From an uncultured Bifidobacterium sp. (GTDB lineage: Bacteria > Planctomycetota > Phycisphaerae > Phycisphaerales > SM1A02): a DNA stretch of 61,879 bases. Positions 15,376 through 61,879 of the stretch are shown in pieces. How positions within the stretch are numbered: position 1 is the first letter of the stretch; every line of letters begins with the position of its first letter. The notes beneath the pieces were generated by a model. The model was not told where the DNA came from. It did not search any database and saw nothing but the letters and a program-made list of their open reading frames with translations. The stretch lies in NCBI GenBank assembly GCA_964552505.1, contig CAZKHO010000001.1, positions 1 through 61,879 on the forward strand, in the 5' to 3' direction. The translations under genes were made by a program, and so were the position numbers.

Positions 15376-15387
15376 GAAGGGGCGATC

Positions 15388-37354: not shown

Positions 37355-37470
37355 CGTTGGTGGAGCCTTGGTGGATTCCTTCGTCGACCGTGCCAGGCGG
37401 CAGGTCGTGGGGATGGTACTGGTGCCTGCGGACCCCCGCAATCGATTCGCCCGGCACCTACGATGCTCGG

Positions 37471-41991: not shown

Positions 41992-43617
41992 TCAGCGATC
42001 GGGTACCCGGCGGTATCGATACCACGCCAGCCACCAGAAGAGCCCCCCGGTGGCCAGCACCGCCGCCAGCAGCGCGCCCACGTAGAAGCCAGGATCCAGT
42101 CCGTCACCGCTGCCGTCTGCATGCGAGGCGGTGAAGTTGCGGACGTTCACGCTGAGCACGCTGGACACCACCTGCAGCGGCAGACCCGCCACCGTGAAGA
42201 AGGTCAGGAGCGTCAACAGCTGGTTCCGCTTCTCGTCCCCGCGCTCGCGCTCCTCGCGCTCGCGCGTGTGGTGCTCCTCCACCACCCACTTGGCCACCGC
42301 CTCCGCGCCGTCGATGGCGATGCGGTGCATGTCGTCGATGCGGGTGACGGCGCGCAGGAAGCGCTCGAATCGGGCGTGGTTGCGCCGGCGGGCGATCTCC
42401 GTGAAGAAGCCGCGCGCACGCACCGCCATCACGGTCTCCAGAAGCGCGCGCACTTCCGTCAGCTGCTGTCGGCGCTCCTGACGCGTCGGCTGGCGGCCGT
42501 CCAGCGGCCGACGCTGCAGCGAACTGGTGGCCTTGATGGTCTGAAGGCGGATGATCTCGATGCAGTGCCACTGGTACTGCGTGAACAGGTCGATGGTCTG
42601 GTAGATGCGGCGGACATGGTTGGGCATGGTGGAGCGGAAGAACTCCGCCGCACGGCCGCGGTCCGCGTCGAAGCCGATGAACATCGCCACGTCCTTGGTG
42701 GCCACGAACCACGCACGGTCGTTGTACTGCAGGCGCTCGCCGCGGGTGGCGTCCGAGTTCTCCGGCACCGGGTCCAGCGCTCTGGACTGGGGCGCCATCT
42801 CCACGAAGCGGTTGAGCAGCCGATGCCGCGCGTCGTCCTCCAGCGGCGCATCCCGCAGCGAGACGCATCCAAAGGCGTGCAGCGGCGCGCCGCGCTCGGC
42901 CGGAACGGCCCAGTCTGCCGGTTCACCCTGATGCCGGATGGCCACCCCCACCTGCCCCAGCAGGCCCCGGATGATCTCCGCCAGCGCCGCCGTCCGCGGC
43001 CCGTCGCCCTGCCGCGCCTCCGGACGCTCCAGGTGCACCCGCGACGGCTGGTCGAAGAACCGGAAGTGGTGCAGCATGTCGTGCCACGCCGGAAGCTCGT
43101 CGGTGGTGGGCTGCGTGACGAAGGTCAGGTAGCCCAGTCCCGTGTCGAACAGCATGAGCTGCACATCGATGAAGCGGAAGGGCACGGAATCCGCGCGGCT
43201 GCCCTGTCCCCAGCACAGTCGCCAGCCGGTGTCGCCACCAAGACCCCGCCAGCTCTTCATGGCGCCGTTGGCCATGCGCCATCCCGCGGCGTGCGGGGGC
43301 GGGTGATCCAGATCGCGGTCCTCCTCCAGCAGCGCGCGCACGTCGGCGGAGAGATCGCCCAGTTCCAGAAGCTTCTCACCCTGGATGGGCTCCCACCCCT
43401 TGTCCATCTCGCCCACGCGCGCCTCGCCCACGTCACGGACCGCGCTGGTGAAGTTCACGCCACGCGACGACTCCTGCGTCTGGCACTCGAACCGGAACGC
43501 GTATCGGAAGCTCAGGAACGAGGTGGTTCCCAGTCCCTGCCCCGTGGGCGACAGGAGCACCGTGGTGGCCGGCGTGACGGACGGGGACCGGATCTCGTCG
43601 TGGGTGTCGTTCGGCAT
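41992..43617 (-). CDS. CorA-like membrane protein: large cytoplasmic domain plus a C-terminal two-TM hairpin, no GMN motif
   Basis: C-terminus NQLLTLLTFFTVAGLPLQVVSSVLSVNV...FYVGALLAAVLATGGLFWWLAWYRYRR mirrors the CorA TM1-(GMN)-TM2-basic-tail layout, with SVN in place of GMN. A long helix rich in R/E precedes it. Confidence 0.65.
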   Translation of the reverse strand: MPNDTHDEIRSPSVTPATTVLLSPTGQGLGTTSFLSFRYAFRFECQTQESSRGVNFTSAVRDVGEARVGEMDKGWEPIQGEKLLELGDLSADVRALLEEDRDLDHPPPHAAGWRMANGAMKSWRGLGGDTGWRLCWGQGSRADSVPFRFIDVQLMLFDTGLGYLTFVTQPTTDELPAWHDMLHHFRFFDQPSRVHLERPEARQGDGPRTAALAEIIRGLLGQVGVAIRHQGEPADWAVPAERGAPLHAFGCVSLRDAPLEDDARHRLLNRFVEMAPQSRALDPVPENSDATRGERLQYNDRAWFVATKDVAMFIGFDADRGRAAEFFRSTMPNHVRRIYQTIDLFTQYQWHCIEIIRLQTIKATSSLQRRPLDGRQPTRQERRQQLTEVRALLETVMAVRARGFFTEIARRRNHARFERFLRAVTRIDDMHRIAIDGAEAVAKWVVEEHHTREREERERGDEKRNQLLTLLTFFTVAGLPLQVVSSVLSVNVRNFTASHADGSGDGLDPGFYVGALLAAVLATGGLFWWLAWYRYRRVPDR

Positions 43618-43752: not shown

Positions 43753-46700
43753 ATGTCAGACCTGCGGACCATCCTGACCCAATCTGGTCTTGGCGAATAC
43801 GCCGAGCGCATGGTGTCGGACCGCATCGATCTTGCGCAGTTGGCGGAGATGAGCGAGCAGGACCTGCGGGAGTACGCGGCTGCATGGCCCTGGGGTGACC
43901 AGAAGCGGCTGCGAGACCTGTGCACCCGCCTGCAGGCCCAGGCACGGAGTGGCGCAACAGCGCAGACGCCGCCGCAGGAGCCCGCGGCCAGCGCGCCACC
44001 CGCCGCCCCTGCCGCGCACCAAGTCGACGTGCCGCCGCTGCCGGCGGACGCCACCATCGACCCCGAACTGCTGCATGGGCTGCCGCTGGTGATCGCGCGG
44101 CCGCTGGAGGCGCTGCTGGGGGCGAAGGATCCCCACCGGATGGTGCACGCGTCGGACCACCTAGTGGACGTCACGCTTCGGTTCCTCTGCCTGATCTGTC
44201 AGGTCGACTACCTCGGGCATCCCAACTGGCAGGACCAGCAGGTGAACGACCAGATCGATGCGCATCTGGAGCGCCCCTCGCTGGGCGACTGGTCCGACCT
44301 CATCACCATGCTGCTGAAGTCGGCGAAGGCGCAGAGCGTGGAGCCGTTCCTCCAGGAACTGCCCGAGGCTTGGCGCGAAATCAAGAATCAGCCGAGCGTG
44401 CCGGTGGACGGCGAGATTTTCGACCGCCTCGGCCATCCGCAGCCGAGCAGCAACCGCATCTCGATCGTGGACGCGCTCACGAGCGCCCGGAACGGCTTTG
44501 CGCATCGAAGAAAGGTGCCCGGCGATCCTGTCGAGGCTGGCTCCCATCGAGACAACGCGTGTCGCCTGATCCGCGGACTCGCCTGGCTGGCTTCCTACGA
44601 CCTGTTCCTCGCGGAGTCCGGCTCAAGCACGCTGCTCCGCGGGCTTCGAGGCGTCGTCAGCGTGGACGGCCCCCGAACCGCGGCTGGTGGTTCATCCCTG
44701 GTGCTCCGCCGGGCTTCCGCCCGGACACGATCCGGGACGGAGTCGCGTGAACTTCCCCTTCCGCCGCTCATCGTTTCCGAGCGTGCGCTGCGCTCCGATG
44801 GACGCGCCGGGGAACCCGCGCTCTACAACGGCCTCAACCCTCGCAAGGGGACCATCTGGTTCACCCCTGCCAGCCCCGACGAACGCGCCATCGAGAGCAC
44901 CCGGCTGAACGAGGCCTATTCGGCACTCCGTGAACGCAAGCGGTACGTGTCGTTGGGTCGCGACGCTTTGACGCAGGAGATCCTTCGCGATCGCGTCGCG
45001 CAGGCGACGAGGCGCAGCTTGGATCAACTGCGCACCTCAGGGAAGTACCGCGAGGAGTTCCACTGCATCCGAGAGTCCTGCGAGCCGATGCTGGAGGGCT
45101 GGGCCGCATCTCCCAAGGCGCTGCTGGGCATCGAGGCGAGGGCCGGAGCTGGCAAGACTGGCGTGATGGCCTCGCTGGCAGGCTCGTGGTCGAGGGACGG
45201 GTCCTGTCCTCCGGTGCTCTTCACGCTGGCACGTGAGTTCCAGTCCTCCAGCCTGGATCAGGTCGTGCGCCGACTGCTGGTGCTGGATGAGGACGTCTTT
45301 CTGGACGACATCTGGCAGCCACTGGGCGGCCTGCTGGTGCTCGTGGACGGTCTGAACGAGTGCCCAAGCGACCATCGTGACGCCATCCTGCAGGGGATCA
45401 TTGCCGCCGCCGATCGGCGCCAACGGGAGGGTCGCGGTCCGCGATTCGCGGTCTCCTGGCGCGAGGACGACCGGGCCTGGATCGAACGAACGCTGCGTCG
45501 TCGCGAGCTCTGGTGGACACCCTTGGAACTGCGACACGAAGCGAGGAGCGCCGACCTCACCCCCACCGCCGGCGATCCGGAGGGATCCACGCGTTCGGAC
45601 GCCCGGCAGTCGCTGGCCCCCCGCCCGCAGCAGGCCGAATCGGGGATCGGGACCCCCGGCAAGTCCGCCGCGCGGGCGACGGACCCATGCTTCCGACTGC
45701 GCCCGTTGACCGATGACGAACTGACGACACTCTGGGATCGATACAAAACACAGGGCGAAAGCCCCACGTCGCGTCATCGGTGCGCACCCCGATTCGACTT
45801 CGAGACGCTTCGCCAGAAGAGCCCTGCCCTGGCGGAGGAACTGCGCAATCCGCTCACGCTGCGCATCGCGATGGAGCTGTACCACGACCAGCCTCTGCCG
45901 CCGGAGGTATCGCCGGAACACCTCTTCTCGGGGTATCTGGAGCGGCTGCGCGCGGAGCGGCTTCCCGCCGGCGCACTCCTGGATCTGATGGCGGAGCTCA
46001 TGGTGCAGGGACGGTCCACCACCGTCTCCCAATGGGCGATCGAGGACCGCCATCGCGAACTGGTGCACGCATCGCCCGTGTCCGCGCTCGACCTGCTGCG
46101 CGACACGGGCGTGCTCTCCTGCCGTCACGAGCGCAACCAGCCGCTGCTGTTCTTCACCAACGAACGGGTGGGCGAGCAGGTGATCGGCGAGTGGCTGGTG
46201 TCGGCCCAGGACGCCGTGGATGCGACATGGCTTGCCGGACGATGCACCGAGATGGAGCCGCTGCCGCTCGCGCGCGGGGCGATCCGCGCGGCGCTGTCGA
46301 TCCTGATCGAGCGGCACGGCTTCGAATACCTGACGCGCTTCATCGACGCGAATCCTCCGGGGGTGGCCAGCATCGCGGGACGGCTCCTCGAGGACAGGCT
46401 GCGCCGATCCGACGAGGGGGAAGCGCGCGCGCTGGGCGAGGCTCTGATCGCGGAGCAGACCGATTCCGACTTCGACGTGGCGCGCGAGGCCGTCCTGGGC
46501 GGCAACACAACGGAGCTTGACGACGAGCAGGCCGTGCCCTTCCTCGAGGCCCTCCGCAACGCGATGCTGTCCGCATCCTCACGAAGCGCAGCCGCCCGGG
46601 ATCTGTGTCTTCACTACGACAATCGGCTCGGAGAGGAGGCCTCGCTGGATTGGCTGCACCTGCTGGAACAGGCGTGGAGAAAGACCACGCACCACGAGCG

Positions 46701-49359: not shown

Positions 49360-49362
49360 CCC

Positions 49363-49875
49363 CTACCCCACCCGCATGGTCATCCCGGCCTCCGGCGACT
49401 CGAAGCTGGCCTCCACCTGGTAGGCGCTTCCGTCGCCACGCACGTAGGTGCAGCGCCGGCGACTCCACTGGATGCAGTGCAGGCACCCGGTCCGCCGCGC
49501 TTCCGCGGTGACCCACGCCAGCACCGCGTCAGGGGCCTGCGCGCCCTGCGGCAACGCCACGCCCGCCATGAAACCGGGCAGCAGACGCACCGACACCCGC
49601 AGTTCCACGGGCTGCTCAGCCCAGCGCTCCCACGCCTGCCGCTGCCGCTCCTCCGTCAGGCGCTGCAGTTGCGCCAGCACGGCCTGGGGCACCCCCAACG
49701 CCATAGCCACGCGCCGCAGCGTCTCCGGCGTGGCCGGGCCGCCCAGTTCCAGTTCGCGGATGCGGGCCCCGCCGCGGGACGCGTCGGCCCAGCCGGCGCG
49801 CAGGGCCAGTTGTCCGGGCGTGAGCCCCGCGGCCAGCCGTTCGGATTCCAGATGATCACCCAGAGGTGTACGCAT
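49363..49875 (-). CDS. XRE-family helix-turn-helix protein with an unassigned C-terminal domain
   Basis: Start at MRTPLGD (ATG at 49875). HTH LTPGQLALRAGWADASRGGARIRELELGGPATPETLRRVAMALGV. Convergent with the STAND gene, with the stops 3 nt apart. Confidence 0.55.
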   Translation of the reverse strand: MRTPLGDHLESERLAAGLTPGQLALRAGWADASRGGARIRELELGGPATPETLRRVAMALGVPQAVLAQLQRLTEERQRQAWERWAEQPVELRVSVRLLPGFMAGVALPQGAQAPDAVLAWVTAEARRTGCLHCIQWSRRRCTYVRGDGSAYQVEASFESPEAGMTMRVG

Positions 49876-50249
49876 GACAAGCCTTCCTTCCGCGGGCCGC
49901 GACCCGCCATACGCATGCCCAGAGTGCCCTGGTGGAAGGCCGCGAGCCACGGACGCCGTGCTCGCGGAGCGGACCGTCCGGCTGCCCAGGCGCGCTGCGC
50001 CCGTGACCGCCGCCGATCCGCCGGCTTTGCGCTCGTTCGCCGCGGGGTCCGTGGACCTTGGGCGACGGCGCCGCATGCCCCTTCCGGGGGTTCCTCCGCA
50101 CCGTGGCCGCGCGGAGCAGCTCGGTTGCGACCCGGCCAGGAGGTGCCGGGATTCGTCATGCTGGGAGCACGATAGCGCGGCTCCCGGGACACAAACGGGA
50201 CACGCCGCGGGTCTTGCCAAAGATTGAGCCGACGGGCGCGGAAATCCCG

Positions 50250-52037
50250 ATGAACCGCGGCGCCCCGGGAGGAGGTGGCGCCCTCATGTTTCCATCGATT
50301 CTGATCTCCGCGGTGGTCCTTGCCGGCAAGGCGCACGCCCCCTTTCCAGTCTGGTGGCTGAACGACGACGCCGTGTGGATTCCCTCGCAGGCCGACTGCG
50401 TGCGCCTGTGGGATTCGCAGCACCCAGGGCGCGGCGCCACCTCGCAGCTGCAGCCGGTCACCTTCCGCGACACCGACAACAAGGAGCGCTCGGTCCGAAC
50501 CTGCCGAGAGTGGTCCGAAGCTCAGGCCTCCGGCGCCACCTTGATCCCGCACGACATGGGATCCGCCGAACACGACCTGGCGGCGGCCTGCGCCCGCCTC
50601 AGCGCCGTGGCCTGCATGCGGCCCTCGGTGCACTCAGCCTTCGCCGGTCAGTCCCACACCGCCCTTGCACTGGCATGCTCCGAGATCGTCAAGGACCACA
50701 CGCCCGGCAAGGCGCAAGCCAAGCCGTCGGGTGTCACCACCCAATCGATCCCGGACGGCGTGGTGGTGCGCGACGGGGAGGGCGGCGAGCTGGTGAAGGT
50801 GCTGGCCAAGGGCGACGTGGATGGAGACGGCTGGGAGGACCTGCTGGTGGGACGGTGGAGCGCGTCCGACGAATGCGGTCGCGAGCACTTCTCCTACGAC
50901 GTGGTCACCCGGGTGGGCACCGGCGGAAAGCTGGTTCCCATCACGGACCGACTGCGACTGCAGGTCAGCGCGAAGCCCACCCCATCGACGGGCAAGCCCC
51001 AGGCCGCCGCGTCCAAGACCACCCACCCGGTCTGGTGGCTCAACGAAGCCACGCTCACCATCCAGTCACCCGCCGACTGCGAGCGCCTCTGGAGCACATG
51101 GCGACCCAAGCCGGATGCAGGAAGTGATCCGTACGACGTGGAGATGACGCTGAAGGACGACCGCAAGGTGACCGCGCGCACCTGCAAGGAGTGGGCCGCC
51201 GCCGTGGACGCGGGCGGCTATGCGTACACCACCTTGGACATGACCATGGAATCGTGGTTTGTGGACGCTTCGGCGCGTCTGGCCATGGTGCCCGTGCTCC
51301 TTCCCTCACGCCACAGCGCCTTCGCAAGCCAGCCCTTCCGTGCGTACGCGCCCGCGCTCAGCGAGTACCGCATGTATGCGGCCGCCAGCAGACTGCGGCG
51401 GTCCACCACCCCCGACCGGATCACCAGCAGCGTGAAGGGCGACGAGTTCAGCTGCGTCCTGGTGGACTCGGAGTGGGAAGAGACGCTTCGCGTGGTGGCA
51501 CGCGGGGACTACAACGGCGACGGCTGGGAGGATCTGTTGGTCAGCAGTGCCGAGCACGCCCTCAGTGGCAGCGGCCGCCGCTACCGCTGGGCGGTCTACA
51601 CACAGGTGGGCAAGGGCCGCCTGATCCCCATCACGGCCCAGGCCTCCGACCGGCCGCTCACGCCGGAGCAGATGACTCAACGCCGCGCGGCCATCGCCCG
51701 TTCCTTCGGCCTTCCTGAGGACCGAGAGATCACGCTGCGCGGCACGCTCAAGGACGCCACGGAGACGCTGCCCGTGACCTGTCGACTTCGATTCAAGAAG
51801 GGCTTCGCCACCGGCTCGTACCAGTACGACCGGGTGGGCAAGCCGATCGAGCTCTCCGGGTCGCTGGGGTTCGAGGGCGCGCTGCTGCTGCGCGAGTTTG
51901 GCGGCGCCGGCAGCGTCCCCACGGGCGACTTCAGGCTGGACTACGCCGTGGAAGGCGGCCGACTGCGCGTCAAGGGGTTCTGGCACGACCAGAACGAGGG
52001 CTTCGATGTACAGCTGGAAGGCGAACTTCCCCGCTGA
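50250..52037 (+). CDS. Exported protein with an internal tandem duplication of about 227-231 aa (each copy with an FG-GAP/VCBS-like GDxDGDGWEDLLV motif) and a distinct C-terminal domain
   Basis: Signal-like MFPSILISAVVLAGKAHA. Repeat anchors PVWWLN (W codons at 50352 and 51033) and DGDGWEDLLV (W at 50832 and 51525). The start could instead be the ATG at 50286. Confidence 0.65.
   Translation: MNRGAPGGGGALMFPSILISAVVLAGKAHAPFPVWWLNDDAVWIPSQADCVRLWDSQHPGRGATSQLQPVTFRDTDNKERSVRTCREWSEAQASGATLIPHDMGSAEHDLAAACARLSAVACMRPSVHSAFAGQSHTALALACSEIVKDHTPGKAQAKPSGVTTQSIPDGVVVRDGEGGELVKVLAKGDVDGDGWEDLLVGRWSASDECGREHFSYDVVTRVGTGGKLVPITDRLRLQVSAKPTPSTGKPQAAASKTTHPVWWLNEATLTIQSPADCERLWSTWRPKPDAGSDPYDVEMTLKDDRKVTARTCKEWAAAVDAGGYAYTTLDMTMESWFVDASARLAMVPVLLPSRHSAFASQPFRAYAPALSEYRMYAAASRLRRSTTPDRITSSVKGDEFSCVLVDSEWEETLRVVARGDYNGDGWEDLLVSSAEHALSGSGRRYRWAVYTQVGKGRLIPITAQASDRPLTPEQMTQRRAAIARSFGLPEDREITLRGTLKDATETLPVTCRLRFKKGFATGSYQYDRVGKPIELSGSLGFEGALLLREFGGAGSVPTGDFRLDYAVEGGRLRVKGFWHDQNEGFDVQLEGELPR
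50340..51650 (+). repeat. Intragenic tandem duplication (two diverged copies of about 680-690 nt)
   Basis: Copy 1 is about 50340-51020 and copy 2 about 51021-51650. Anchor motifs are offset by 681 and 693 nt. The copies are diverged at the DNA level and similar at the protein level. Confidence 0.6.
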
Positions 52038-53957
52038 TCAGCGTCGAAGGCGGCGCCATCGCCACCGCCCCACCGCCCCGCGCAGCGTGAACAGGCACGC
52101 CGCCACCGCCACCGGCATCAGCACCGCCATGCCGGCCAGCATGGCTTCGTAGCCCTGGGTGGAGAGGCGCGTGCTCACCAGCACGCCCACCAGCAGCAGC
52201 GAGAACAGCACGAAGGCGCGGACATACACGGCGTCGATCAGGGTGCGCGCGCCCGGCGCGGGCTTGGGCTCCGCGAAGTACAGCGCCACCGCGGAGAGGA
52301 ACAGGCTGGCCAGGATCCCCGCCACCATGTCGGCGTGGCCGCTGCCGGCCAGCAGCGCCGCCATGGCGATCACCAGCAGCAGCGCCAACGGGAGCCCCAC
52401 GCGCAGGGCCACGTCGCGACGGGCCCGCCGCAGCCGCACGCCAAACTCCATGCCCTGCACCACCGCCGGTCTGCCGTCCATGGAAGGGCGCGCGGACCAG
52501 GTCACGCCGCGGTGCCCGCCCACCACGCGCCAGCCGGTGCAGGCGCAGTCGATGTCGGCACCGCGCGCCAGCGGCCGCATCACGGATCCCGCGTGCGCGC
52601 CGTCGGCGGCCAGACGGATGGTGAGCAGCTGCGTGTCGAAGGGATACGCCACCAGATCCGGATCCAGCCGGAAGGTGCCGCGAAGCGTGTAGACGCCCGC
52701 ACCCAGGCCGCGAGCCACGCGCCACTCCGGCAACCCCACGGCGTTGAGCACCCGCACGCAGTCGGGCCCGTGGGCGTCGGACCACGGGCGGTCGCTGGCC
52801 AGGTGCACCAGCGCCTCGGCCTCGAAGGTGCCCTTGGCCTCGTCGACGGCGCCCACCTCCACCAGGTCCACGTCCGCGGCCAGCGAGGGCGACCGTTCGA
52901 ACGAACCGTCCGTGCGGGGAACCACCTGCATGGGCGCCGTCTGGCGCCGGCGCGCCACGGGATCCACCGACCCCACCACCGTCTCCAGGCAGGCGTTGCG
53001 CCGATCCGCGTCGAACCACATGGGCCTGTGCCAGCCACGGAAGACCCGCTGCCGTCCGTCGCGGGCGGCGATGGCCGCGCAGAGCGCGTCGGCCAGGCCG
53101 GCGGCGTCCGGAGCGCGCAGCCGATCCAGCGTCTCGATCACCAGCCGCACGGCGTCGATGCGCCAGGCCAGCATGCCCGCGGTGTCCAGGTCCGCCTGCT
53201 CGGGGGACTCCAGGACCTGCGCCACGGCCGCAGCCAGCCCGCCACCGATCCGGTCGGGCAGCATGCCCACGATCTCCCGGACGCTGGCGGCCGCGGCGTC
53301 GGAGGGATCTGGATTGCCGTTCAGGAAGACCACGGAGCGACGACCGTCCAGTTGACGGGCGATGGCGCGATTGAGGGCGCCGCCGCACTCCAGCAGTGCC
53401 ACGCCGTCGGGCTGCGTGGACGACAGGATCTCCTCCACGCAGCGCGCCACGCCGGAGGCGTTGGCGGGCGGCGTCACCGGCGTCACGCGGCATGTGGCCA
53501 CGCGAAGCAGGCACGCAGGCGGGTCAGACGAGACCACTGCCGCGTGCGCGTGACCCTCGCCCATCAGGAGCGCCGCCGCCGCCTGGGCCTTGTGCAATCT
53601 CGAACCGACCCCCAACCGGAACGATCGCGCATGCCCTGCCGTGGCCGGTTCCAGGTTCTGGTGCAGCACCACCACGGGCGCGGCGCCCACAGCCGCCACC
53701 ACCGCGCGACCCGCCGCCTCCGACGGGGGCGCCAGGATCACGGTCAGCGTGGTCGGATCCAGGCGCACGGCCGACATGGGTGCGTCGCCGGAAGGGTCCA
53801 GCACCTGCTCGAATCGCAGGCGGTGCCCACGGGGCGTGCCCTCCCGCCTGGACTCCGCGATGGCCAGGTCCGCCAGTTCGCGCTCCAGCCGGATCACCTC
53901 GGCCATGGACCGAGGCGCCTCGAAGGGCTGCAGGATGGACAGGATGCGCACACGCAT
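52038..53957 (-). CDS. Cys-loop (pentameric ligand-gated ion channel) family homologue with a large N-terminal extension and no signal peptide
   Basis: AYPFDTQLLTIRL matches the Cys-loop FPFDxQxC signature, with the Cys replaced. It is followed by beta-rich sequence and four TM helices (M1 LPLALLLVIAMAALLAG ... M4 MAVLMPVAVAACLFTL). Start chosen at MRVRILS (ATG at 53957) to avoid overlap with the divergent 54049 gene. The N-terminal 300 aa may be periplasmic-binding-protein-like (tentative). Confidence 0.7.
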   Translation of the reverse strand: MRVRILSILQPFEAPRSMAEVIRLERELADLAIAESRREGTPRGHRLRFEQVLDPSGDAPMSAVRLDPTTLTVILAPPSEAAGRAVVAAVGAAPVVVLHQNLEPATAGHARSFRLGVGSRLHKAQAAAALLMGEGHAHAAVVSSDPPACLLRVATCRVTPVTPPANASGVARCVEEILSSTQPDGVALLECGGALNRAIARQLDGRRSVVFLNGNPDPSDAAAASVREIVGMLPDRIGGGLAAAVAQVLESPEQADLDTAGMLAWRIDAVRLVIETLDRLRAPDAAGLADALCAAIAARDGRQRVFRGWHRPMWFDADRRNACLETVVGSVDPVARRRQTAPMQVVPRTDGSFERSPSLAADVDLVEVGAVDEAKGTFEAEALVHLASDRPWSDAHGPDCVRVLNAVGLPEWRVARGLGAGVYTLRGTFRLDPDLVAYPFDTQLLTIRLAADGAHAGSVMRPLARGADIDCACTGWRVVGGHRGVTWSARPSMDGRPAVVQGMEFGVRLRRARRDVALRVGLPLALLLVIAMAALLAGSGHADMVAGILASLFLSAVALYFAEPKPAPGARTLIDAVYVRAFVLFSLLLVGVLVSTRLSTQGYEAMLAGMAVLMPVAVAACLFTLRGAVGRWRWRRLRR

Positions 53958-54013
53958 GACGGCGGCGGAGGCTACCCGCGGCGGCGCGTGGCACGCGTGA
54001 CGGCCTGCCGCGG

Positions 54014-54023
54014 CATCTATACT
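54014..54023 (+). promoter_or_regulatory. AT-rich 10-mer CATCTATACT, a candidate -10 region 26 nt upstream of the second STAND gene
   Basis: Contains TATACT. The identical 10-mer occurs on the minus strand at 21181-21190. It lies in the 91-bp divergent intergenic region. Confidence 0.3.
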
Positions 54024-54048
54024 CGCCGGGCCCTCGGGCAAGCGGCCC

Positions 54049-57000
54049 ATGAGCGACGGCTCCTTCCAACCCGAACACACCTCCCGGGAGCTGATCACCA
54101 GCCTTCCCATGGTGATCGCACGCCCACTGCAGCGCCTCATGGCGGCCGGGTCCAGCACGGACCTCAACGACGCGGCGAAGATGACGCTGAACTACACCCT
54201 GCGGTTCCTGGGGCAGGTCTGCATCTCGGACTACCTGGCGGCCGACGACTGGTACGACCCCATCGTGACCGGCCTGGTGCAGGACCGGGTCAAGCGCAAC
54301 TCCATGGGCCACTGGGTGGAGATCACGCGCGCCATCATCTCCTCGGCCGCCGCTCGCCGGCGCACCATGTTCCTGCAGGAGCTGCCGGACACGTGGCAGC
54401 GCACCGAGTTTGCGCAACCGCTTCGCCTGAGCGGCGTGTCGTGCGACGAGGACGGCCCCGTGGCGCCGCAGCGACGCTTCGGCAGGCTGGAGTACCTGCT
54501 GAAGCACCGCAACGACCTGGAGCACGGCCGCATCATGTCCACCGACGAGGCGAAGGCGGAGGAGTTCCGGCTTCGCACGGTGGAGGCGCTGGCGGAGTAC
54601 GCATGGCTGGGCCGCTACGAAGTGCTGCTGCAGGACCCCAGCGGCTGGTGGCGCTGCCGCGGACTGCACCCCATGCTGATCTCCACCAGCGACCCGGGCA
54701 AGCGGCCCGAGCTGCACTTACGCCTGCCGGATCCCGGCAGCGCCGCCGGAGCCAGGTCGCTCCGGCTGCTGCCGCTGGTGGTGCCGCGAAGTCTGGTCAG
54801 CGCCGACGCGGCGGGAGGCGAGACCGACATCGCCGTCTATGGACAGATGGTGGGCGAGCGGCAGGCGCAGTACACCGGCCCGTCGCTCGACACCCGCACG
54901 CGCCGCGTGGGCGAGTTTGGAAGCGCGCTGGCCACCACCATCGAGGAGCTGCACGCGCTGCTCCGGCGCAAGGAGTTCCCGCTGCTGGGGCGCGAGGGCC
55001 TCACGGCCGAGCAGATCCGCGAGCGCATCCGCGCGGCTACCGATCTCACCTTCCGCACGCTGCACGACTCGCGCAAGTACACACCGGAGCTGCATGTGCC
55101 GAGGGAGTCGTGCGAGGACCGACTGGCGGACTGGCTGCGATCGCCCCTTCCCCTGCTGGGCGTGCACGGCGAGCCGGGCTCGGGCAAGACGGGCATCCTG
55201 GCGTCGCTGGTGCGCCGTTGGAACGGCACCGAAGGCGGGCCCGCCGTGCTGTTCCTGCTGGCGGCCAAGTTCGCCGACGCCGGATCGCTGGACGCGCTGG
55301 TGGAGCAGGCGCTCCGACTGCACGACGTCTCGCTGGAGCGGCTGGCCTCGCACGAGCAGCTCAACGGTCTGGTGGTGGTGCTGGACGGCCTCAACGAGCA
55401 TCCCGCTCGCGAACGCCTTCTCTCCGACATCCTGCAGCAGGCGCACCGCAGCCGCGAGCGTGGCGTGGGCGCACGCTTCCTGATCAGCTGGCGCACCGAC
55501 GACCGCGCCTGGATCGAGCCCGCCCTGGCGGAGCGCGCGCTGTGGTGGGATCCGGGCGCGCAGCGGGTGGCGTCGGTGCGCACCACGGGCAGCCGGGACG
55601 ACTGGGGCACGCAGCTGGCCGCCCTGCGCGAGCGCCTGCGGCCCGCCGGGTCCGACACGCGCGAGACGCCCCGCACCTCCGTCGCCACGGACGGCCAGGC
55701 GCAGGCCGCGCCCAACCGCAGCGGGAGCGGCCCCACCGGTCCCGCACCGGAACTGGACCGTGGCACCGCCGGGGAAACGCCCGCGGGCTCCCACGCGAAC
55801 GACCGCGCGGCGGCGCACCCTGCGCTTCGAGTGCCCGCGCTGGACGACGCGGAGGCCGCGCGCATCTGGGAGCGCTACAGGGAGCGCGAACCGCACCGAC
55901 TGAACCCGGGCTTCTCGCTGGAGGACCTGGGACGCAGCAGCCGCTGGGCGCATCGCGCGCTGGCCAGCCCGCTGGGCATCCGCATCGCGCTGGAGACCTT
56001 CCACGAACGCGAGGTGCCCAGCAGCGACGAGGCGGAGAGCCTGTTCTTCTCCTTCCTCTCGCATCTGGAGCGCGGTTCCACGGGACCGGCCGTGCGCCGC
56101 CTGCTCGACACGGTGAGCCGACTGGTGCTGGCGTCACGACGCAATCGAGTGGAGCTTCGCGAGATCGAGGCGGCCGGCGGCTCGGATCTGCTGTTCGCCA
56201 CGCCGGAGTCGGCCATGGATCGCCTGGTTCGCCGAGGCGTGCTCTCCATGCTCCGCTCCCCGGACGGTCGCGACGCCTGCGCCTTCACCGTGGAGCGCGT
56301 GGCGGAGCATGCGCTGGGCCGCGTGCTGTCGGAGGCGGACGAGGCGTCCGATCCGTCGTGGCTGGCGAACCGTGCCGTGCAGCTGCAGGACCTCACGCTC
56401 TCCAAGGGTGCCGTGGAGGCGGCCCTGCATCTGCTGTCGGATCGGCACGGCATCGACTACGTGTTCCGCTTCGTGGACGCGGTGCCCAGTGAACACGCGG
56501 GCATCGCCGGACGCGCGCTGGGAGCGCATCTGCTGCGCAGCGGACCCGACGGCGCCGCCGACGTGGCCGAAGGTCTGCTCTCGCAGCGCACCGACTCCGA
56601 CTTCGAGGTGGCGCGCGCGGCGGCGGACTACCTGTGGTGGTCCGAGGGTGCCGACGCGGCCGTGGAACTGGCGTTCCTGGACGCCGTCGCGGAGCCCGCA
56701 CTGGAGGCGTTCCTCTCCGGCAACGAGACGGCGGGCGAGGTGCTGCGGCAGTACGCGCAGTGCCTGATCCAGCACCATCACGCCTCCAGCGAGGACGACG
56801 CCCCCGCAGGCGAGGCCAGCGGATCCATCGAATGGCTGGAGGACGTGCTGCGCCGCGCCGAGGGCGTGGCCCCGCTGGGCCCGGTGCTGGCCCTCATGCA
56901 CGAGCTGGGCCGACACCTGCTGCGCGACGACCGTGACGCGGACGCGGCCGCGTGCTTCGGACGCGTGGTGGAGCGGCTGGCCGGCGCCGACCGGTCCGAT

Positions 57001-60000
57001 CCCGCGCTGCAGCGGCAGTTCCTGCTGGCGCTGCACCAGCAGGCGCGCGCGCTGGAGCGATGCGAACGCTTCGCCGAGGCGCTGGCGGCGTACCGACGGG
57101 GGCCGCTGGAGGCGTCCAGACATCCGCACCAGCCTGGCTGGACCTCCGACGACGACGACGCGGGCGAGGCACGCTGCCTGGAGGGCCTGGGACGCTGGGA
57201 GGAGGCGCTGCCACTGCGCGAACGGCTGCTGCACGCCGCCGAGGCCTCGGGCGATCGCCGCGACATCGCCATCGCGCTGGAGTTCGTGGCGCGCGCGCAG
57301 CGCAACTCGGGACTGGTGGAGGAGGCCATCGAGTGCTTCGAGCGCTCGCTGCGCACCGGCCTGGAACCCACGCGCTGCGAGAACTGGTACCCGGCGGTGC
57401 TGGCCAACGCCCTGGCCCGGGCGGAAGGCGCGCGTGGCAACCATGACGCCGCCGTCGGGTGGCGCCGCCGCTGCCTGGCGTTCGTGCAGGCGGACCTGGA
57501 ATCGGGGCTGGCCGAGCGACGCAACGTGGCCATCGAGCTGGAACTGCTTGGCGACGCGCTCCGCGAGGCGGGGCGTCTGGACGAGGCCGTGGCGCAGTAC
57601 CACGCGTCGCTGGACATGGGCATGAACCCCGAGTGGTGCGACCGCTGGAGCCCGGTGCTGGCCACCATCGAGCTGGCGCGCTGCCACGTGTCCGCCGGCC
57701 GCCACGACCGGGCCGAAGCCGAGATGGAGCAGCTGGTGCAGCGGACGCGCGAGCACGGCGAGGCGCTGCATCTGGCGCGCGCGCTGCTGGCGCAGGCGTC
57801 CATCCTGCAGCAGCTGGATCGTCACGAGGACGCCATCGTGTGCCTTGAGGCCGCGGTCACGGAGGGCGACGAGCGCGCGGTGTCGGCGGGATGGAGCCCC
57901 ACCGAGGCGCTTGAGAGCCTGGTGGAGAGCCGCGAGGCGCTGGGCGATCTGGAGGGCGCGCGCGCGGACGTGCGTCGGATCCTGGAACTGGTGGAAGCCG
58001 GCGGCGACCGGCGCGCCAAGGCGATCGCCCTGGAGCGCGAAGCCCGACTGCTGCGGGCGCTGGGGCGCCACGCCGAGGCGCTGGACGCGGCTGGCCGCTC
58101 GCTGGACGCGGGACTGCTTCCCGAACCGTGCCGAGACTGGTCGCCCTACCCCGCCGCCGAGATGATGGTGGAGTCGCTGGAGGCCATGGACCGGCGCCCC
58201 GAGGCGCTGGAGGCGGCACGCGAGATGGTGCGGCGCGTGGAGCCTTGCTCGCGTCGATCACGAGCCATCGTGCTGGAACTGCTCGGCGACACGCTGGAGC
58301 GCGCCGACCGGCCCGAGGAGGCCATCCGCGCCTTCCTGCAGAGCACCGAGGTGGGCATGACGCCCGCGCCCGTGGCGCGCTGGAGCCTGGCCACCGCGCC
58401 TCGCAAGGCCGCGCGTCTGCTGCTGCGGCTGGACCGCGTGGACGAGGCGATGACGCTGCTGAAGGAGAGCCAGCTTCGAAGCCTTCGCCATTCGGATCGT
58501 GCCGCCTCCGCGAACGACCTGGAGCTGGACGCCGACATGCTCCGCGAGGAGGAGCGTCTGCGTGAGGCCGCAGAGATCTACGGGCGCTCCATCCAGGTGG
58601 GCATGCAGCCGCGACAGGCGCCCGGCTGGAGCCCGCGCGGCTCGCTCTGGGGACTGGCGGACGCGCTGGCTCGACTGGGCGACCACAAGGGTTCGCTGGA
58701 CGCCGCCGAGCGCTACCTGGCGGCCGCCCGCATGGACCAGGACCGTCGTGCGGAAGTGATCGGACTGGAGATCCGCGCCTACGCGCATCTGGGTCTGGGA
58801 CAGCTGGACGCCGCGGAGCGCGACGCGCGCGCCTCGATCGCGGCGGCCACGCAGGGCAAGTGGGTGGGCGAGTGGTCGCCCATCCCGTCGGGACAGACCG
58901 TGGCCAAGGCGCTCGCCGGCCTGGGCCGCGCCGCGGAGGTGCCCGCGTTCTGGCATTCCATCGCGCAGCTCTGCGATCACGAAAGCGTCCGGCGTGCCCG
59001 CGCGATCGCCCTGGAGCTGCAGGGCGACGCCCTCAAGGACGCCGGCCATCCGGAGGAGGCGATCAAGGCCTTCCGTGCCGCGCTGGAGTCGGGGATGCAC
59101 CCCCACCGCTGCTCCAACTGGAATCCGCTGGTGCTGCTGCACAAGAAGTTCCGGTGCCGGCAGGCTCTGGCGCAGTGGCCGCAGGCGCTGGAGGGCGCGG
59201 ACGCGTACCTGGCCATGGCTCGGCGCGTGGAGAACTCGTTTGGCCTGGCCGTGGGCCACGAACTCCGCTGCCTGGCGCTGCTGGAGCTGGGTCGACACTT
59301 CGAGGCGCTGGAAGCGGCCCGCAAGGCGCTGGACGCCGGCATGGGTCCGCCCTGGGTGCGGGGCTGGCGCGTCACCGCGGTCACGCCGCTGGTGGCCGCC
59401 GCGCTGCGCGGTCAGGACCGTGCGTCGGACGTGGCGCCCACGCTGCACCAGATCGCGGAGCGTGCAGGCAGCCTGGGCCACGCGCAGGCCAAGGCCACCG
59501 TCCTGGTGCAGGCGGGTGAGGCCTTCGCGAAGGACGGTGACGAGTCGTCCGCGGTGGAGGTGCTGCAGGAAGCGGTGACGCTGGCGGAGACGCACGAAGA
59601 TCAGGCGCTGCTGGTCCGCGCGGTGGCCGCCCTGCGCCAGCCGCTCATGCGCCTGGGCAGACACGCCGAGGCGCTGGGGCATGTCACGCGCATGCTGGAA
59701 CGCGCGCGGGTCGCGGGCCAGACGCCAACGGTGGCTGAGGCCCTGTGCCTTCGCGCGGAACTGCTGAACGAGCTGGGTCAGCACCAGGAGGCGCTGCGCG
59801 ACGCCGGCGAAGCCATCGACCGTGGCTGCGAAGGCCCCTGGTCGGAGGACTGGTCGCCTCTTGCCGCTGCGGACGCCACCGAGCGCGCGATGGTGGCGCT
59901 GCAGCGCACGCGTGAGGTCCCCACCTTCTGGTCGTCGATCGCCGCGCGCGCTACCCACGGCGGCCGCCGCCTGGAGCAGGCCGAGGCCCTGCTCCGATCG

Positions 60001-61245
60001 GGCATGGCCTCCGCCGACGCCGACGACCATGCGGCCGCCATCCCCTCGCTGGAGCGCGCACTGGGCGTCGCCGGCGGGCCGGAGCCGCTGCAGGACTGGG
60101 ACCACGCGCATGCGCTGGCCACGCTGGCGAGCTGCCACGCTGCACTGGGCCACCACGCGGAGGCACTTGAACTGGAGCGACGCTGCGAGCAGGCCGTCCT
60201 GGCCGACGGCAACCTGAGCAACGCCGTCCGCTGCTGCATCCGTCAGGTGACCTGCCTGACGTCGGTGGGCGACCTGGCCGGCGCCGAAGTGGCTTCCGCG
60301 CGGTGCGTGTCGCACGCCCAGCGTTCCGGTGAACGCCGGCTGCTGGCGCTGGCGCACCTCCGCCGTGGCGAGTTCCTCCGGGATCGCGAACGGCACGCCG
60401 ACGCGATCGACCACTTCGGACAGGCCATCGACGCTGCGCGTCAGCCCGAACCCATTCCCGACTGGCCCCTGGCCACCGCCATCATGGGACTCAGCACCAG
60501 TCTGGCCGCCACGGGCGACCTGCCGCAGGCGCTGGATCTGCTCCAGCCCGTGATCGACGCCGCGCTGGACGCGCAGGATCATGCGGAAGCCGCGCAACTG
60601 CTTGAGCATCGAGGACAACTGCTGGGGGAGGCCGACCGCCTGGAGGAGGCCGCCATTGCGCTTGCGTCCATGGCGCGTCATCACAGCCTGGCCAAGGACG
60701 CCGATGGACGCGCGAAGGGACTGCTGTTGCACGCCTCGTGCCTGGAACGCCTTGGGCGAAGCGAAGAAGCCGGACGCGTGCTGGCCGCGATGCTGGATCC
60801 GGGACCGGACGGCATCGAGACCGAGGACGCCGTGGCGGCCGCCTGCTCCTGCTGCCCGGCGCTGGCCGAGGCCCAGCCGGAACTGGCGGGTCGGCTGGCG
60901 CGTCCCGCGCTTCGTCAGGTGTTCGCGCTGGCGCGCTCGCGCGGCGACGCCGTGATGGCCGCGCTGGACCTGGCCATCCTGCTGCCTTCGCTGGGCCCCA
61001 CCCTGGTGACGGAGCCCGTCATCCTGGCCACCGACGCGCTGCTCCGGCACCTGCTGCAGGCACTGCAGACGCTGGAGCGCGCCAACCTGAAGGGCCGTCA
61101 CCCCGAGATGCTCCGTGACGGCTCCGTGCGTGCGATGGTGGCGCAGGCATGGGACTTCGCCTCCACCCTGCTGGACGCCACAGGCGATCCACGCAGCGCC
61201 GCGGGCGCCCGGGAAAGCGCCGAACTCTGGAGGAAGGCCCCATGA
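54049..61245 (+). CDS. Giant (2398 aa) STAND protein: HEPN-like domain (RNxxxH), NACHT-type NTPase and a very long TPR array
   Basis: RNDLEH at nt 54508-54525. The N-terminal region aligns by eye with the 43753 protein (LPMVIARPLQRL / LPLVIARPLEAL; TLRFLGQVCISDYL / TLRFLCLICQVDYL). Walker A GEPGSGKTGI (about 55168-55194). Walker B LVVVLDGLNEHP. About 1700 aa of TPR-like repeats. Confidence 0.85.
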   Translation: MSDGSFQPEHTSRELITSLPMVIARPLQRLMAAGSSTDLNDAAKMTLNYTLRFLGQVCISDYLAADDWYDPIVTGLVQDRVKRNSMGHWVEITRAIISSAAARRRTMFLQELPDTWQRTEFAQPLRLSGVSCDEDGPVAPQRRFGRLEYLLKHRNDLEHGRIMSTDEAKAEEFRLRTVEALAEYAWLGRYEVLLQDPSGWWRCRGLHPMLISTSDPGKRPELHLRLPDPGSAAGARSLRLLPLVVPRSLVSADAAGGETDIAVYGQMVGERQAQYTGPSLDTRTRRVGEFGSALATTIEELHALLRRKEFPLLGREGLTAEQIRERIRAATDLTFRTLHDSRKYTPELHVPRESCEDRLADWLRSPLPLLGVHGEPGSGKTGILASLVRRWNGTEGGPAVLFLLAAKFADAGSLDALVEQALRLHDVSLERLASHEQLNGLVVVLDGLNEHPARERLLSDILQQAHRSRERGVGARFLISWRTDDRAWIEPALAERALWWDPGAQRVASVRTTGSRDDWGTQLAALRERLRPAGSDTRETPRTSVATDGQAQAAPNRSGSGPTGPAPELDRGTAGETPAGSHANDRAAAHPALRVPALDDAEAARIWERYREREPHRLNPGFSLEDLGRSSRWAHRALASPLGIRIALETFHEREVPSSDEAESLFFSFLSHLERGSTGPAVRRLLDTVSRLVLASRRNRVELREIEAAGGSDLLFATPESAMDRLVRRGVLSMLRSPDGRDACAFTVERVAEHALGRVLSEADEASDPSWLANRAVQLQDLTLSKGAVEAALHLLSDRHGIDYVFRFVDAVPSEHAGIAGRALGAHLLRSGPDGAADVAEGLLSQRTDSDFEVARAAADYLWWSEGADAAVELAFLDAVAEPALEAFLSGNETAGEVLRQYAQCLIQHHHASSEDDAPAGEASGSIEWLEDVLRRAEGVAPLGPVLALMHELGRHLLRDDRDADAAACFGRVVERLAGADRSDPALQRQFLLALHQQARALERCERFAEALAAYRRGPLEASRHPHQPGWTSDDDDAGEARCLEGLGRWEEALPLRERLLHAAEASGDRRDIAIALEFVARAQRNSGLVEEAIECFERSLRTGLEPTRCENWYPAVLANALARAEGARGNHDAAVGWRRRCLAFVQADLESGLAERRNVAIELELLGDALREAGRLDEAVAQYHASLDMGMNPEWCDRWSPVLATIELARCHVSAGRHDRAEAEMEQLVQRTREHGEALHLARALLAQASILQQLDRHEDAIVCLEAAVTEGDERAVSAGWSPTEALESLVESREALGDLEGARADVRRILELVEAGGDRRAKAIALEREARLLRALGRHAEALDAAGRSLDAGLLPEPCRDWSPYPAAEMMVESLEAMDRRPEALEAAREMVRRVEPCSRRSRAIVLELLGDTLERADRPEEAIRAFLQSTEVGMTPAPVARWSLATAPRKAARLLLRLDRVDEAMTLLKESQLRSLRHSDRAASANDLELDADMLREEERLREAAEIYGRSIQVGMQPRQAPGWSPRGSLWGLADALARLGDHKGSLDAAERYLAAARMDQDRRAEVIGLEIRAYAHLGLGQLDAAERDARASIAAATQGKWVGEWSPIPSGQTVAKALAGLGRAAEVPAFWHSIAQLCDHESVRRARAIALELQGDALKDAGHPEEAIKAFRAALESGMHPHRCSNWNPLVLLHKKFRCRQALAQWPQALEGADAYLAMARRVENSFGLAVGHELRCLALLELGRHFEALEAARKALDAGMGPPWVRGWRVTAVTPLVAAALRGQDRASDVAPTLHQIAERAGSLGHAQAKATVLVQAGEAFAKDGDESSAVEVLQEAVTLAETHEDQALLVRAVAALRQPLMRLGRHAEALGHVTRMLERARVAGQTPTVAEALCLRAELLNELGQHQEALRDAGEAIDRGCEGPWSEDWSPLAAADATERAMVALQRTREVPTFWSSIAARATHGGRRLEQAEALLRSGMASADADDHAAAIPSLERALGVAGGPEPLQDWDHAHALATLASCHAALGHHAEALELERRCEQAVLADGNLSNAVRCCIRQVTCLTSVGDLAGAEVASARCVSHAQRSGERRLLALAHLRRGEFLRDRERHADAIDHFGQAIDAARQPEPIPDWPLATAIMGLSTSLAATGDLPQALDLLQPVIDAALDAQDHAEAAQLLEHRGQLLGEADRLEEAAIALASMARHHSLAKDADGRAKGLLLHASCLERLGRSEEAGRVLAAMLDPGPDGIETEDAVAAACSCCPALAEAQPELAGRLARPALRQVFALARSRGDAVMAALDLAILLPSLGPTLVTEPVILATDALLRHLLQALQTLERANLKGRHPEMLRDGSVRAMVAQAWDFASTLLDATGDPRSAAGARESAELWRKAP
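57139..60099 (+). repeat. Strictly periodic 82-aa (246-nt) super-repeat within the TPR array
   Basis: The conserved motif G-(L/M)-x-P-x(4)-W-(S/Y)-P has its Trp codon at 57139, 57385, 57646, 57892, 58138, 58381, 58627, 58873, 59119, 59365, 59851 and 60097. Spacings are 246, 261, 246, 246, 243, 246, 246, 246, 246, 486 (2x243) and 246 nt. The copies are diverged at the DNA level. Confidence 0.75.
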
Positions 61246-61583
61246 AGCGATCGTCCGTCACCGCCGCGGCCGCGGCCGCCCTGCTTGCCATGACCGCACT
61301 GGCGCTGATGGCCGCCCGTCCCGACGGACCGCACGGTCGCTGCGTGGGCATGTTCCTGGATCCCTCGCCGGGCGGCGGCAGCTCGCGCCTGCCGAAGGAG
61401 GTGCCGGCGGACGCCAACAACCTGACCGTGCGCGGCACCGTGCCGTGCGCGGGCAACGTGATGGCCTGGAGCGCGCGCGGCCCCTATCGCGTCTTCGAGG
61501 ACGGCACCGTGGAGTTCCTGGCGTCGCCCATCCCACCGTGCCCCGGCGGCGACTTCTACGTGTGGATCGCGTTTCCCAACTGA
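61242..61583 (+). CDS. Small secreted Cys-containing protein, ATGA-coupled to the STAND gene
   Basis: ATGA overlap at 61242-61245. Signal peptide MKRSSVTAAAAAALLAMTALALMAA. Four Cys in the mature part. No family recognised. Confidence 0.55.
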   Translation: MKRSSVTAAAAAALLAMTALALMAARPDGPHGRCVGMFLDPSPGGGSSRLPKEVPADANNLTVRGTVPCAGNVMAWSARGPYRVFEDGTVEFLASPIPPCPGGDFYVWIAFPN

Positions 61584-61727: not shown

Positions 61728-61879
61728 ATGACGCTCTTCCTGGTCAGCCTGGCGCTGACCTACATCATCACCGTCTACTTCCTGACCAACCCGCTGCGAC
61801 ACGGGCGCCCGTTCATGTGGCGCCGGTTCACCAACTGGTTCCCGCTGGGCATGACGTACTCGTTCCTCTACATGGGGCG
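61728..61879 (+). CDS. 5' end of a membrane protein gene (possibly an MFS-type transporter), truncated by the window edge
   Basis: ATG at 61728, open to the end of the window. MTLFLVSLALTYIITVYFL...NWFPLGMTYSFLYMG is hydrophobic and reminiscent of MFS N-termini. Not in the ORF track because it is incomplete. Confidence 0.35.
   Translation, partial: MTLFLVSLALTYIITVYFLTNPLRHGRPFMWRRFTNWFPLGMTYSFLYMG

Follow-up and report, generated by a model that had tools for sequence, protein, structure and literature searches.

Two paralogous giant proteins with predicted HEPN-like, NACHT-like and TPR modules, one of them SAM-capped, as candidate single-gene sensors of a rare bacterial family

Fusions of a HEPN domain with a STAND NTPase and tetratricopeptide repeats (TPR) were listed in 2013 (Npun_F6454, MED222_16016, Desac_1927; Swt1-like HEPN assemblage; Anantharaman et al., PMC3710099), and HEPN ribonucleases (RNases) have been placed among the N-terminal effectors of bacterial NACHT (bNACHT) proteins (Kibby et al. 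2022 preprint, 10.1101/2022.07.19.500537). Avs proteins have been described as single-gene systems whose product assembles into oligomers when it binds a phage protein (PMC13581612), and for SAMD9 and SAMD9L (SAMD9/9L) the order of domains has been given as SAM, AlbA_2 tRNase, SIR2, P-loop NTPase, TPR and OB (Legrand et al. 2025, PMC12680541). Here we analyse two large genes, encoding the proteins P1 and P2, in a stretch of 61,879 nucleotides of contig CAZKHO010000001.1 (the whole stretch is called the window below). With bNACHT proteins they have in common a NACHT-like NTPase, a predicted N-terminal enzymatic effector (in bNACHT proteins including HEPN) and a C-terminal repeat sensor (there TPR, LRR or HEAT), and with Avs proteins the layering of effector, STAND NTPase and TPR-like sensor. 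They differ from the latter in that the NTPase is NACHT-like and the effector HEPN-like instead of Cap4, Mrr, SIR2, TIR or a protease. Given the fusions of 2013 and the bNACHT effectors of 2022, the kind of system is therefore already known, and P1 and P2 are most likely, as judged from their sequences, single-gene immune or cell-suicide sensors of this described kind in a rare and elaborate version. It appears reasonably likely that they represent anciently diverged paralogues, rare single-polypeptide HEPN-like/STAND (NACHT-like)/TPR sensors, which would act by a predicted RNase on oligomerisation.

The first-pass annotation of the window had reported two open reading frames (ORFs) of 1868 and 2398 aa within 18 kb, and their coordinates and translations match. 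All motifs that it quoted have also been found at the positions given for them, including both P-loops, both Walker B motifs and the segments LPLVIARPL, LPMVIARPL and TLRFL. The two proteins are laid out as follows, where NOD stands for the nucleotide-binding oligomerisation domain and HMM for hidden Markov model.

43753 to 49359, forward strand: P1, intact ORF of 1868 aa with SAM, HEPN-like, NACHT-like NTPase and TPR modules (ORF, translation, orthologue P0006)
43753 to 43947, forward strand: P1 SAM domain, residues 1-65 (SAM_1 match, homologous caps, SAM-cap HMM), followed by an Ala/Pro-rich linker up to ~44064
44065 to 44622, forward strand: P1 HEPN-like helical domain, residues ~105-290 (aligned to P2 and other family members), with the predicted catalytic RNGFAH at 44488-44505
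44623 to 44787, forward strand: P1 small beta-strand subdomain, residues ~291-345, closing the conserved N-terminal module (N-module; aligned to P2 191-245)
44935 to 46497, forward strand: P1 NACHT-like NOD module, residues ~395-915 (Pfam, NOD HMM, motif conservation), with Walker A GAGKTG at 45145-45162, Walker B VDGLNE at 45343-45360, a disordered insert at 45520-45696 and NPLTLRIA at 45847-45870
46630 to 49356, forward strand: P1 TPR sensor array, residues ~960-1868 (Pfam TPR_12, loop spacing)
54049 to 61245, forward strand: P2, intact ORF of 2398 aa with HEPN-like, NACHT-like NTPase and TPR modules, without a SAM cap (ORF, translation, orthologues P0005 and P0157)
54088 to 54618, forward strand: P2 HEPN-like helical domain, residues ~14-190 (AlphaFold2 model, column conservation, family-level HEPN Pfam matches), with the conserved acidic D61 and Y62 at 54229-54234 and the predicted catalytic RNDLEH at 54508-54525
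54619 to 54783, forward strand: P2 beta-strand subdomain, residues 191-245 (strands of the AlphaFold2 model)
54961 to 56628, forward strand: P2 NACHT-like NOD module, residues ~305-860 (NPHP3_N and NACHT scores, motif conservation), with Walker A GSGKTG at 55177-55194, Walker B LDGLNE at 55381-55398, a disordered insert at 55555-55818 and SPLGIRIA at 55966-55989
56746 to 61242, forward strand: P2 TPR sensor array, residues ~900-2398 (TPR_12, loop spacing)

At a window G+C of ~70%, the third-position bias of coding DNA is present in both genes (G+C at third codon positions, GC3, of 0.79 in P1 and 0.89 in P2). The start methionine of P1 is shared with its orthologue P0006 (58% identity in the core) and that of P2 with its orthologues P0005 and P0157 (2404 aa); an in-frame N-terminal extension of P2 is impossible, as no start codon lies between the preceding stop and 54049. 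In a six-frame HMM scan of the window, P1 and P2 have been the only copies of the module. The GC3 of 0.79 in P1 goes with a regional G+C of ~0.68, and P2 and most neighbours show GC3 values of 0.85-0.90 at a regional ~0.73; the lower G+C of P1 could reflect a different history or a different expression relative to P2.

The N-module of ~250 aa that P1 and P2 share belongs to a rare family. When 1.84 billion representative proteins were scanned exhaustively with HMMER and a profile of P1, P2 and P0001, 199 clusters were recovered at E<=1e-3, of which 32 reach E<=1e-10, and word-indexed homologue searches (P2 N-module; P1+P2 900-aa profile; 36-sequence profile) have returned only 2-4 fragments. 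Column conservation has been determined from 171 aligned matching domains, about 130 of which cover the motif columns (P2 numbering). The most conserved positions of the entire module are R154 (133/134), N155 (132/133) and H159 (129/134). P20, A24, Y62 (Tyr in 133/157), W89 and position 61, which is acidic (E/D in 131/158), are conserved as well, and of these E/D61 and the tyrosine sit at the end of the long helix before the motif helix. Both paralogues carry an Rx4-6H motif with a polar residue right after the arginine (RNGFAH in P1, RNDLEH in P2), and the R-N-x-x-x-H pattern, first noticed in the two proteins alone, is no coincidence of two paralogues, being near-invariant across ~130 homologous domains. 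A second candidate in P2, RNSMGH at residues 83-88, has been rejected as a HEPN motif, since the corresponding column pair reads R-P in the family. One family protein, P0014, carries two HEPN-like modules in tandem.

The structure of the P2 N-module has been modelled with AlphaFold2 from a 36-sequence alignment (A4) at a predicted local distance difference test score (pLDDT) of 89.8 and a predicted template-modelling score (pTM) of 0.86. The model has helices at 21-32 and 36-64, then a helical insert (65-145), a helix at 146-158, a loop and a helix at 167-182, to which a five-stranded beta subdomain is appended (191-196, 199-202, 209-212, 221-226, 236-240). The RNDLEH motif (154-159) is located at the C-terminal end of helix 146-158 and runs into the loop. 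A motif at a helix end entering a loop is part of the published description of the HEPN domain (PMC3710099), with which the element order of the N-module agrees, as judged from the order of secondary structures only. A Pfam scan of 36 family N-modules points in the same direction, as the families matched by more than one member are all HEPN: HEPN_RiboL-PSP in 9/36 (best E 2.1e-6 at 28.2 bits, with the cut-off at 28.4), HEPN_MAE_28990 in 9/36 (best E 3.7e-5), and HEPN_Swt1 and HEPN_Apea in 2/36 each. These matches span the motif and its flanking helices, and P1 itself shows a weak HEPN_RiboL-PSP match over the motif region (E 0.047). An hhalign comparison of the family profile with a Pfam-annotated HEPN_STY4199 protein from locus L010 has been weak (E 0.02, probability 2%), with only RN..AH and the next helix aligned, in register. 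Overall, we consider it quite probable that the N-module is a divergent HEPN family without a Pfam model of its own, containing a large insert and extended by a beta subdomain.

For the second layer, a NOD HMM has been built from P1 and P2 and compared with 154 family proteins, 88 of which possess a NOD of the P1/P2 type. Its Walker A motif GxGK[ST] is invariant (80/80), the Walker B motif D-[GA]-x-N-E is strongly conserved (D 70/71, N 65/71, E 67/70) and corresponds to the NACHT-type hhhhDGxDE with Asn replacing the second Asp, and in the helical NPL..R motif the proline is invariant (72/72); a further F..E segment is conserved. In Pfam, P2 reaches 25.5 bits for NPHP3_N (cut-off 24.8) and 23.3 bits for NACHT (cut-off 26.7). 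The relative P0020 exceeds the NACHT cut-off with 29.6 bits, P0018, P0020 and P0040 are above that of NPHP3_N, and nSTAND_NTPase5 gives weak matches only. NACHT and NPHP3_N have thus been the best NTPase families, and NB-ARC has never been found among the Pfam matches of P1, P2 or their relatives. Together with the invariant Walker A motif and the D-[GA]-x-N-E motif, these scores support the NTPase of the first-pass annotation as STAND/NACHT-like; it is followed by a helical module and then by the C-terminal TPR sensor, as in the STAND/NACHT arrangement. The domain order and motifs of both proteins bear out, at the level of sequence, the proposed architecture of effector, STAND NTPase and repeat sensor. 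The low-complexity insert described after the NTPase is real in both proteins (P1 ~590-648, P2 ~503-590). It is rich in A/G/P/R/T, separates the NTPase core from the helical module, is 33-38% identical between orthologues versus 57-79% in its flanks, and is restricted to the P1/P2 clade, being absent from distant homologues. A metagenome protein of 862 aa, P0004, combines Trypsin_2 and NACHT with a NOD of the P1/P2 type (E 1e-5, database search); the NTPase lineage of P1 and P2 therefore appears to be coupled to a protease effector as well.

Long TPR arrays, likewise expected, have been detected in both proteins by Pfam TPR_12 (P1 E 5e-25 in 8 stretches, P2 E 4e-38 in 10 stretches), beside weak matches to TPR_MalT, and the full-length relatives all end in TPR_12/TPR_10 arrays. 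The repeat periods do differ, in that a recurring G-x-x-P...W-x-P loop returns mostly every ~82 aa in P2 but every ~122-126 aa in P1. Tandem Repeats Finder has detected no DNA-level tandem repeats in either gene, and the arrays are therefore old and not recently amplified. Between P2 and its orthologue the identity amounts to 76% in the HEPN module, 73% in the NOD and 48% in the TPR array, whose 1498 aligned residues contain no more than 3 gap positions; between P1 and its orthologue it amounts to 46% in the TPR array and 56-67% in the N-terminal modules. Such divergence at fixed length would be expected if a sensor surface diversified on a fixed scaffold, and the different architecture and faster divergence of the two arrays suggest two receptors for two ligands.

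The paralogy of P1 and P2 with a common N-terminal helical domain is far beyond chance: in a BLASTP comparison of the first 960 residues of each, P1 105-913 and P2 14-858 align with 34% identity over 863 columns (E 3e-118), and the C-terminal halves align repeat-to-repeat at 25-29%. In a neighbour-joining tree of the HEPN+NOD core, P2 and P0005 (70% identical to each other) are sister to the whole SAM-bearing clade, in which P1 and P0006 share 58% identity and P0003, P0008, P0010 and P0011 are 33-43% identical to P1. Because the P2 lineage takes this sister position, the duplication is judged to be ancient. A recent local tandem duplication has been ruled out, as P2 is sister to the SAM clade and each paralogue has its own orthologue elsewhere.

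In P1, residues 1-65 score 21.7 bits for SAM_1, just below the cut-off of 23. The cap aligns with 18 homologous caps, and of these 19 sequences 14 match SAM_1 (best E 3e-18) and 11 match SAM_2 (best E 7.5e-18). Because its homologues match SAM_1 and SAM_2, the SAM-like domain proposed for this position is, on profile evidence, a genuine SAM domain. With the SAM-cap HMM, a SAM-like cap has been found in 20/154 family proteins, always N-terminal, and P2 and its orthologues are without a cap. Other members carry a CxxC...CPxC zinc ribbon (~18 proteins) or a short, uncharacterised beta-motif, RFxGFPxPDGLLVLDTxTGEV (~22 proteins), and among the family proteins P0015-P0152 these three caps replace one another in front of the HEPN-like module. 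The N-terminus of P0084 is kinase-like. The layers of P1 follow one another as in SAMD9/SAMD9L, namely SAM, (predicted) RNA-targeting nuclease, STAND P-loop NTPase and TPR, and both have been proposed as translation-arresting antiviral sensors. P1 is unlike SAMD9/9L and the bacterial Avs9, however, in having a HEPN-like nuclease, no SIR2 or OB and no detectable sequence relationship; AlbA_2 and SIR2 domains have been found by Pfam in neither P1 nor P2. We regard the resemblance as an analogy only. The N-terminal SAM of SAMD9-like proteins "seems exclusive to eukaryotes" (PMC12680541), a statement with which the SAM caps in 20 of the 154 members of a bacterial STAND family contrast. A possible, if doubtful, extension would be that P1 stands for a bacterial lineage of SAM-capped, RNase-armed STAND-TPR receptors, arisen independently of animal SAMD9/9L and convergent to them, in which SAM is a swappable regulatory or polymerisation module that gates an unmodelled HEPN family. 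If true, SAM-driven assembly of nuclease-STAND immune sensors would not be a eukaryotic invention.

From the Avs and bNACHT proteins and from the known behaviour of HEPN domains, we infer a mechanism in which the effector would be a divergent HEPN-superfamily core, predicted to be a metal-independent RNase with a catalytic R-N-x-x-x-H. At rest, the protein would be a monomer and its HEPN domain inactive. Once the TPR solenoid binds a macromolecule that is foreign or danger-associated, the NOD would be released, oligomerisation dependent on nucleoside triphosphates would bring HEPN domains together, and their paired R-N-x-x-x-H motifs would form composite active sites; the active form of HEPN RNases is typically a dimer in which the Rx4-6H site is composite (PMC3710099; PMC13092281). 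The resulting cleavage of tRNA, rRNA or mRNA would arrest translation and lead to growth arrest, abortive infection or cell death. In P1, the SAM domain probably adds homotypic clustering or recruitment.

Several results weigh against an RNase-armed immune sensor. PADLOC (PADLOC-DB 2.0), the models of which presumably include AVAST/Avs, has returned 0 families at E<=1 for P1 and P2, which therefore fall outside any validated Avs/bNACHT family (Avs1-5, bNACHT01/09 and others); the lack of a PADLOC match sets them apart from bNACHT proteins, as do NACHT scores below the Pfam cut-off in both (15.4 bits for P1 against 26.7). The neighbourhood in the window carries only weak or candidate defence matches, relatives have not been found on viral contigs, and no mobile-element markers have been seen. 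The HEPN score of P1 is 14 bits, P2 is without a match, and no curated HEPN threshold has been reached, the profile matches across the family being all below their cut-offs. Searches of PDB sequences with phmmer and with the profile (hmmsearch) have found nothing, and NCBIfam has given TPR noise only for P1 and P2 and, for the 36 N-modules, only singletons at E>0.02 with Cas13b on top. A Foldseek comparison of the confident model with PDB and BFVD has returned nothing at E<0.05, the best HEPN entries being 8xeh_B (E 2.7) and a MAE_28990-like HEPN (E 0.87) with template-modelling (TM) scores of 0.26-0.45, and a first, shallow model (pLDDT 70.6) has given no significant matches either. Foldseek is weak for helical bundles with large inserts, and the fold may be that of HEPN despite the lack of a match. 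Of the HEPN-like N-terminal domain in the first-pass annotation, the conserved motif has stood and only HEPN families recur in Pfam; the structural comparison that was to show a HEPN fold has brought no significant match. HEPN membership is probable.

With the same architecture, the role of the two proteins could be other than antiviral. They would then be programmed-cell-death, kin-discrimination or developmental-lysis sensors with a HEPN RNase as executioner, which respond to self or competitor signals in a socially living, myxobacterium-like organism. The named genomes with distant family members are metagenome-assembled genomes of Myxococcales, Planctomycetota, Opitutia and Dormiibacterota, which would suit such a role, and no phage or mobile-element link has been found. 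The window is moreover rich in LRR, ankyrin, FG-GAP, MoxR-vWA and GYF-trypsin genes, which are typical of conflict systems, mostly in multicellular prokaryotes (Kaur et al. 2020, PMC7159879). Sequence cannot separate this role from antiviral immunity, but fast-diverging TPR arrays of fixed length are, together with TIR, DUF4062 and ubiquitin-like neighbours of homologues, typical of anti-invader loci, and we hold the non-antiviral role to be unlikely. The neighbours in question, observed around distant homologues, are DUF4062-STAND genes with a ubiquitin-like E1/E2/JAB/RING cluster, and a DEAD/MZB helicase with a TIR_2 protein. Relatives have not been found on plasmids, and a scan of the GTDB species representatives with P1/P2-specific patterns has not found the P1/P2 clade.

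Alternatively, the N-module could be no nuclease at all, whether a helical regulatory or adaptor domain or a catalytically dead, RNA-binding HEPN derivative, in which case P1 and P2 would be signalling STAND ATPases of the MalT/AfsR type that act via partners. The weak TPR_MalT matches would fit, as would the lack of a significant structural match to a solved HEPN and profile scores that stay below the curated cut-offs. Yet no residues of the module are better conserved than R, N and H in ~130 diverse sequences, which is unexpected for a dead domain, Pfam has detected no DNA-binding or other output domain in P1 and P2, and no family other than HEPN recurs among the matches, which makes this alternative rather improbable.

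An RNase-armed sensor that works as a single gene is also preferred over one part of a larger locus. In the window and in the ENA contig L003, which has a P2-type gene only, the HEPN-NACHT-TPR gene is preceded by a block of an ankyrin protein, a ~940-1030-aa protein, a UvrD-like helicase and a CorA-like protein, and gene sizes and Pfam marks point to the same upstream block in a JGI contig (3300059473; 41.6 kb), where both orthologues lie on the same strand, 3.4 kb apart, with different genes between them. It is very improbable that P1 and P2 are components of a multi-gene system with this block, whose recurrence and whose CorA-like and helicase proteins with matches to PADLOC candidate-defence models speak for it, since the neighbours of the distant members P0008, P0010, P0011, P0025 and P0033 are altogether different, the genes are arranged divergently and do not form one operon, and the number of STAND genes varies from one in L003 to two in the window and the JGI contig; the linkage may therefore reflect only synteny between related genomes. 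The gene of the block nearest to P1 is the following.

41992 to 43617, reverse strand: CorA-like protein of 541 aa, divergent from P1 (PADLOC PDLC01175, E 2.7e-13); a conserved neighbour, given as context only

A CorA-like homologue with 48% identity is located just upstream of the P2 orthologue in L003. Between L003 and the window, the block is 25-48% identical and the STAND gene 56%, while two small flanking genes are 80-84% identical, because of which the locus is taken to be evolving fast. These small genes occupy 61317-61580 and 61728-61877; the homologue of the former lies upstream of the P2-type gene in L003 and downstream of P2 in the window, which therefore indicates a local rearrangement. 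The 1185-aa ankyrin protein and, next to it, the protein of 1027 aa without a Pfam domain (30623-37441, reverse strand) occupy the same place in the related genome (1-5536 of L003), at identities of only 33% and 25%. The UvrD-like helicase, matching the PADLOC candidate C3a187 "NERD+UvrD" (E 5e-10), is followed by a GYF_2 + Trypsin_2 protein (37558-40685, forward strand). Since ~700 nt are shared, in different frames, by the ORFs 36973-39411 and 38691-40685, the trypsin gene probably has its true start near 39.4 kb. GYF-trypsin proteins have been named as components of conflict systems (PMC7159879).

Between P1 and P2, an HTH_31 protein (49363-50220, reverse strand), an FG-GAP repeat protein (50058-52037, forward strand) and a 709-aa ORF without a Pfam match (52038-54167, reverse strand), which overlaps the start of P2 by 119 nt, have been found. 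The intervening genes are not conserved, four different small genes taking their place in the JGI contig. Further away, a DUF2201_N+DUF2201 (vWA/metallopeptidase) gene (23997-25169), a MoxR-type AAA_5 gene (25162-26277) and the LRR giants 26294-29272 and 29269-30582 form a cluster on the reverse strand. A homologous cluster of MoxR (55%), DUF2201 (39%) and LRR genes at 7020-14512 of L012 adjoins the SAM-HEPN-NACHT-TPR homologue P0011, so that linkage of both systems is seen in at least two genomes. An SMC/ABC-type ATPase (15925-17955, reverse strand) matches PADLOC mad3 (E 4e-21) and LmuB (E 1.4e-13), and with the small ORFs at 14737-15906 (reverse strand) this region may be a Lamassu- or MADS-like defence module. 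A subtilase S8 + DUF4384 protein (8702-10939) and a 722-aa protein with a C-terminal FKBP-type isomerase domain (1487-3655) are encoded on the forward strand. Scans for tRNA, promoters and terminators have brought nothing informative.

Compared by description with the Npun_F6454-type fusions, P1 and P2 are distinguished by the insert in the HEPN core, the beta subdomain, the disordered insert in the NOD, TPR arrays of 900-1500 aa and, in P1 only, the SAM cap. The HEPN affinity also differs, as HEPN_Swt1 accounts for 2 of the 36 family members versus 9 for RiboL-PSP and 9 for MAE_28990. In the literature searched, neither a SAM-capped version nor cap-swapping, a HEPN variant with insert and beta subdomain, or giant TPR arrays of fixed length have been described. 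The conceptual advance is modest, as the basic architecture had been predicted already in 2013 and 2022. If the prediction holds, a class of RNA-targeting effectors, built on a HEPN variant that is distinctive and unmodelled, would join the NLR-like repertoire of bacteria, and it would do so in a type of organism (high-GC, myxobacterium- or planctomycete-like) whose immunity has been poorly studied. Gain-of-function mutations in human SAMD9/9L cause disease, and the SAM-capped members may provide a bacterial test bed for the control of nuclease-STAND sensors of this kind by SAM. Residing together with differently built, fast-diverging TPR solenoids, P1 and P2 would offer a natural pair in which to study how repeat sensors gain their specificities.

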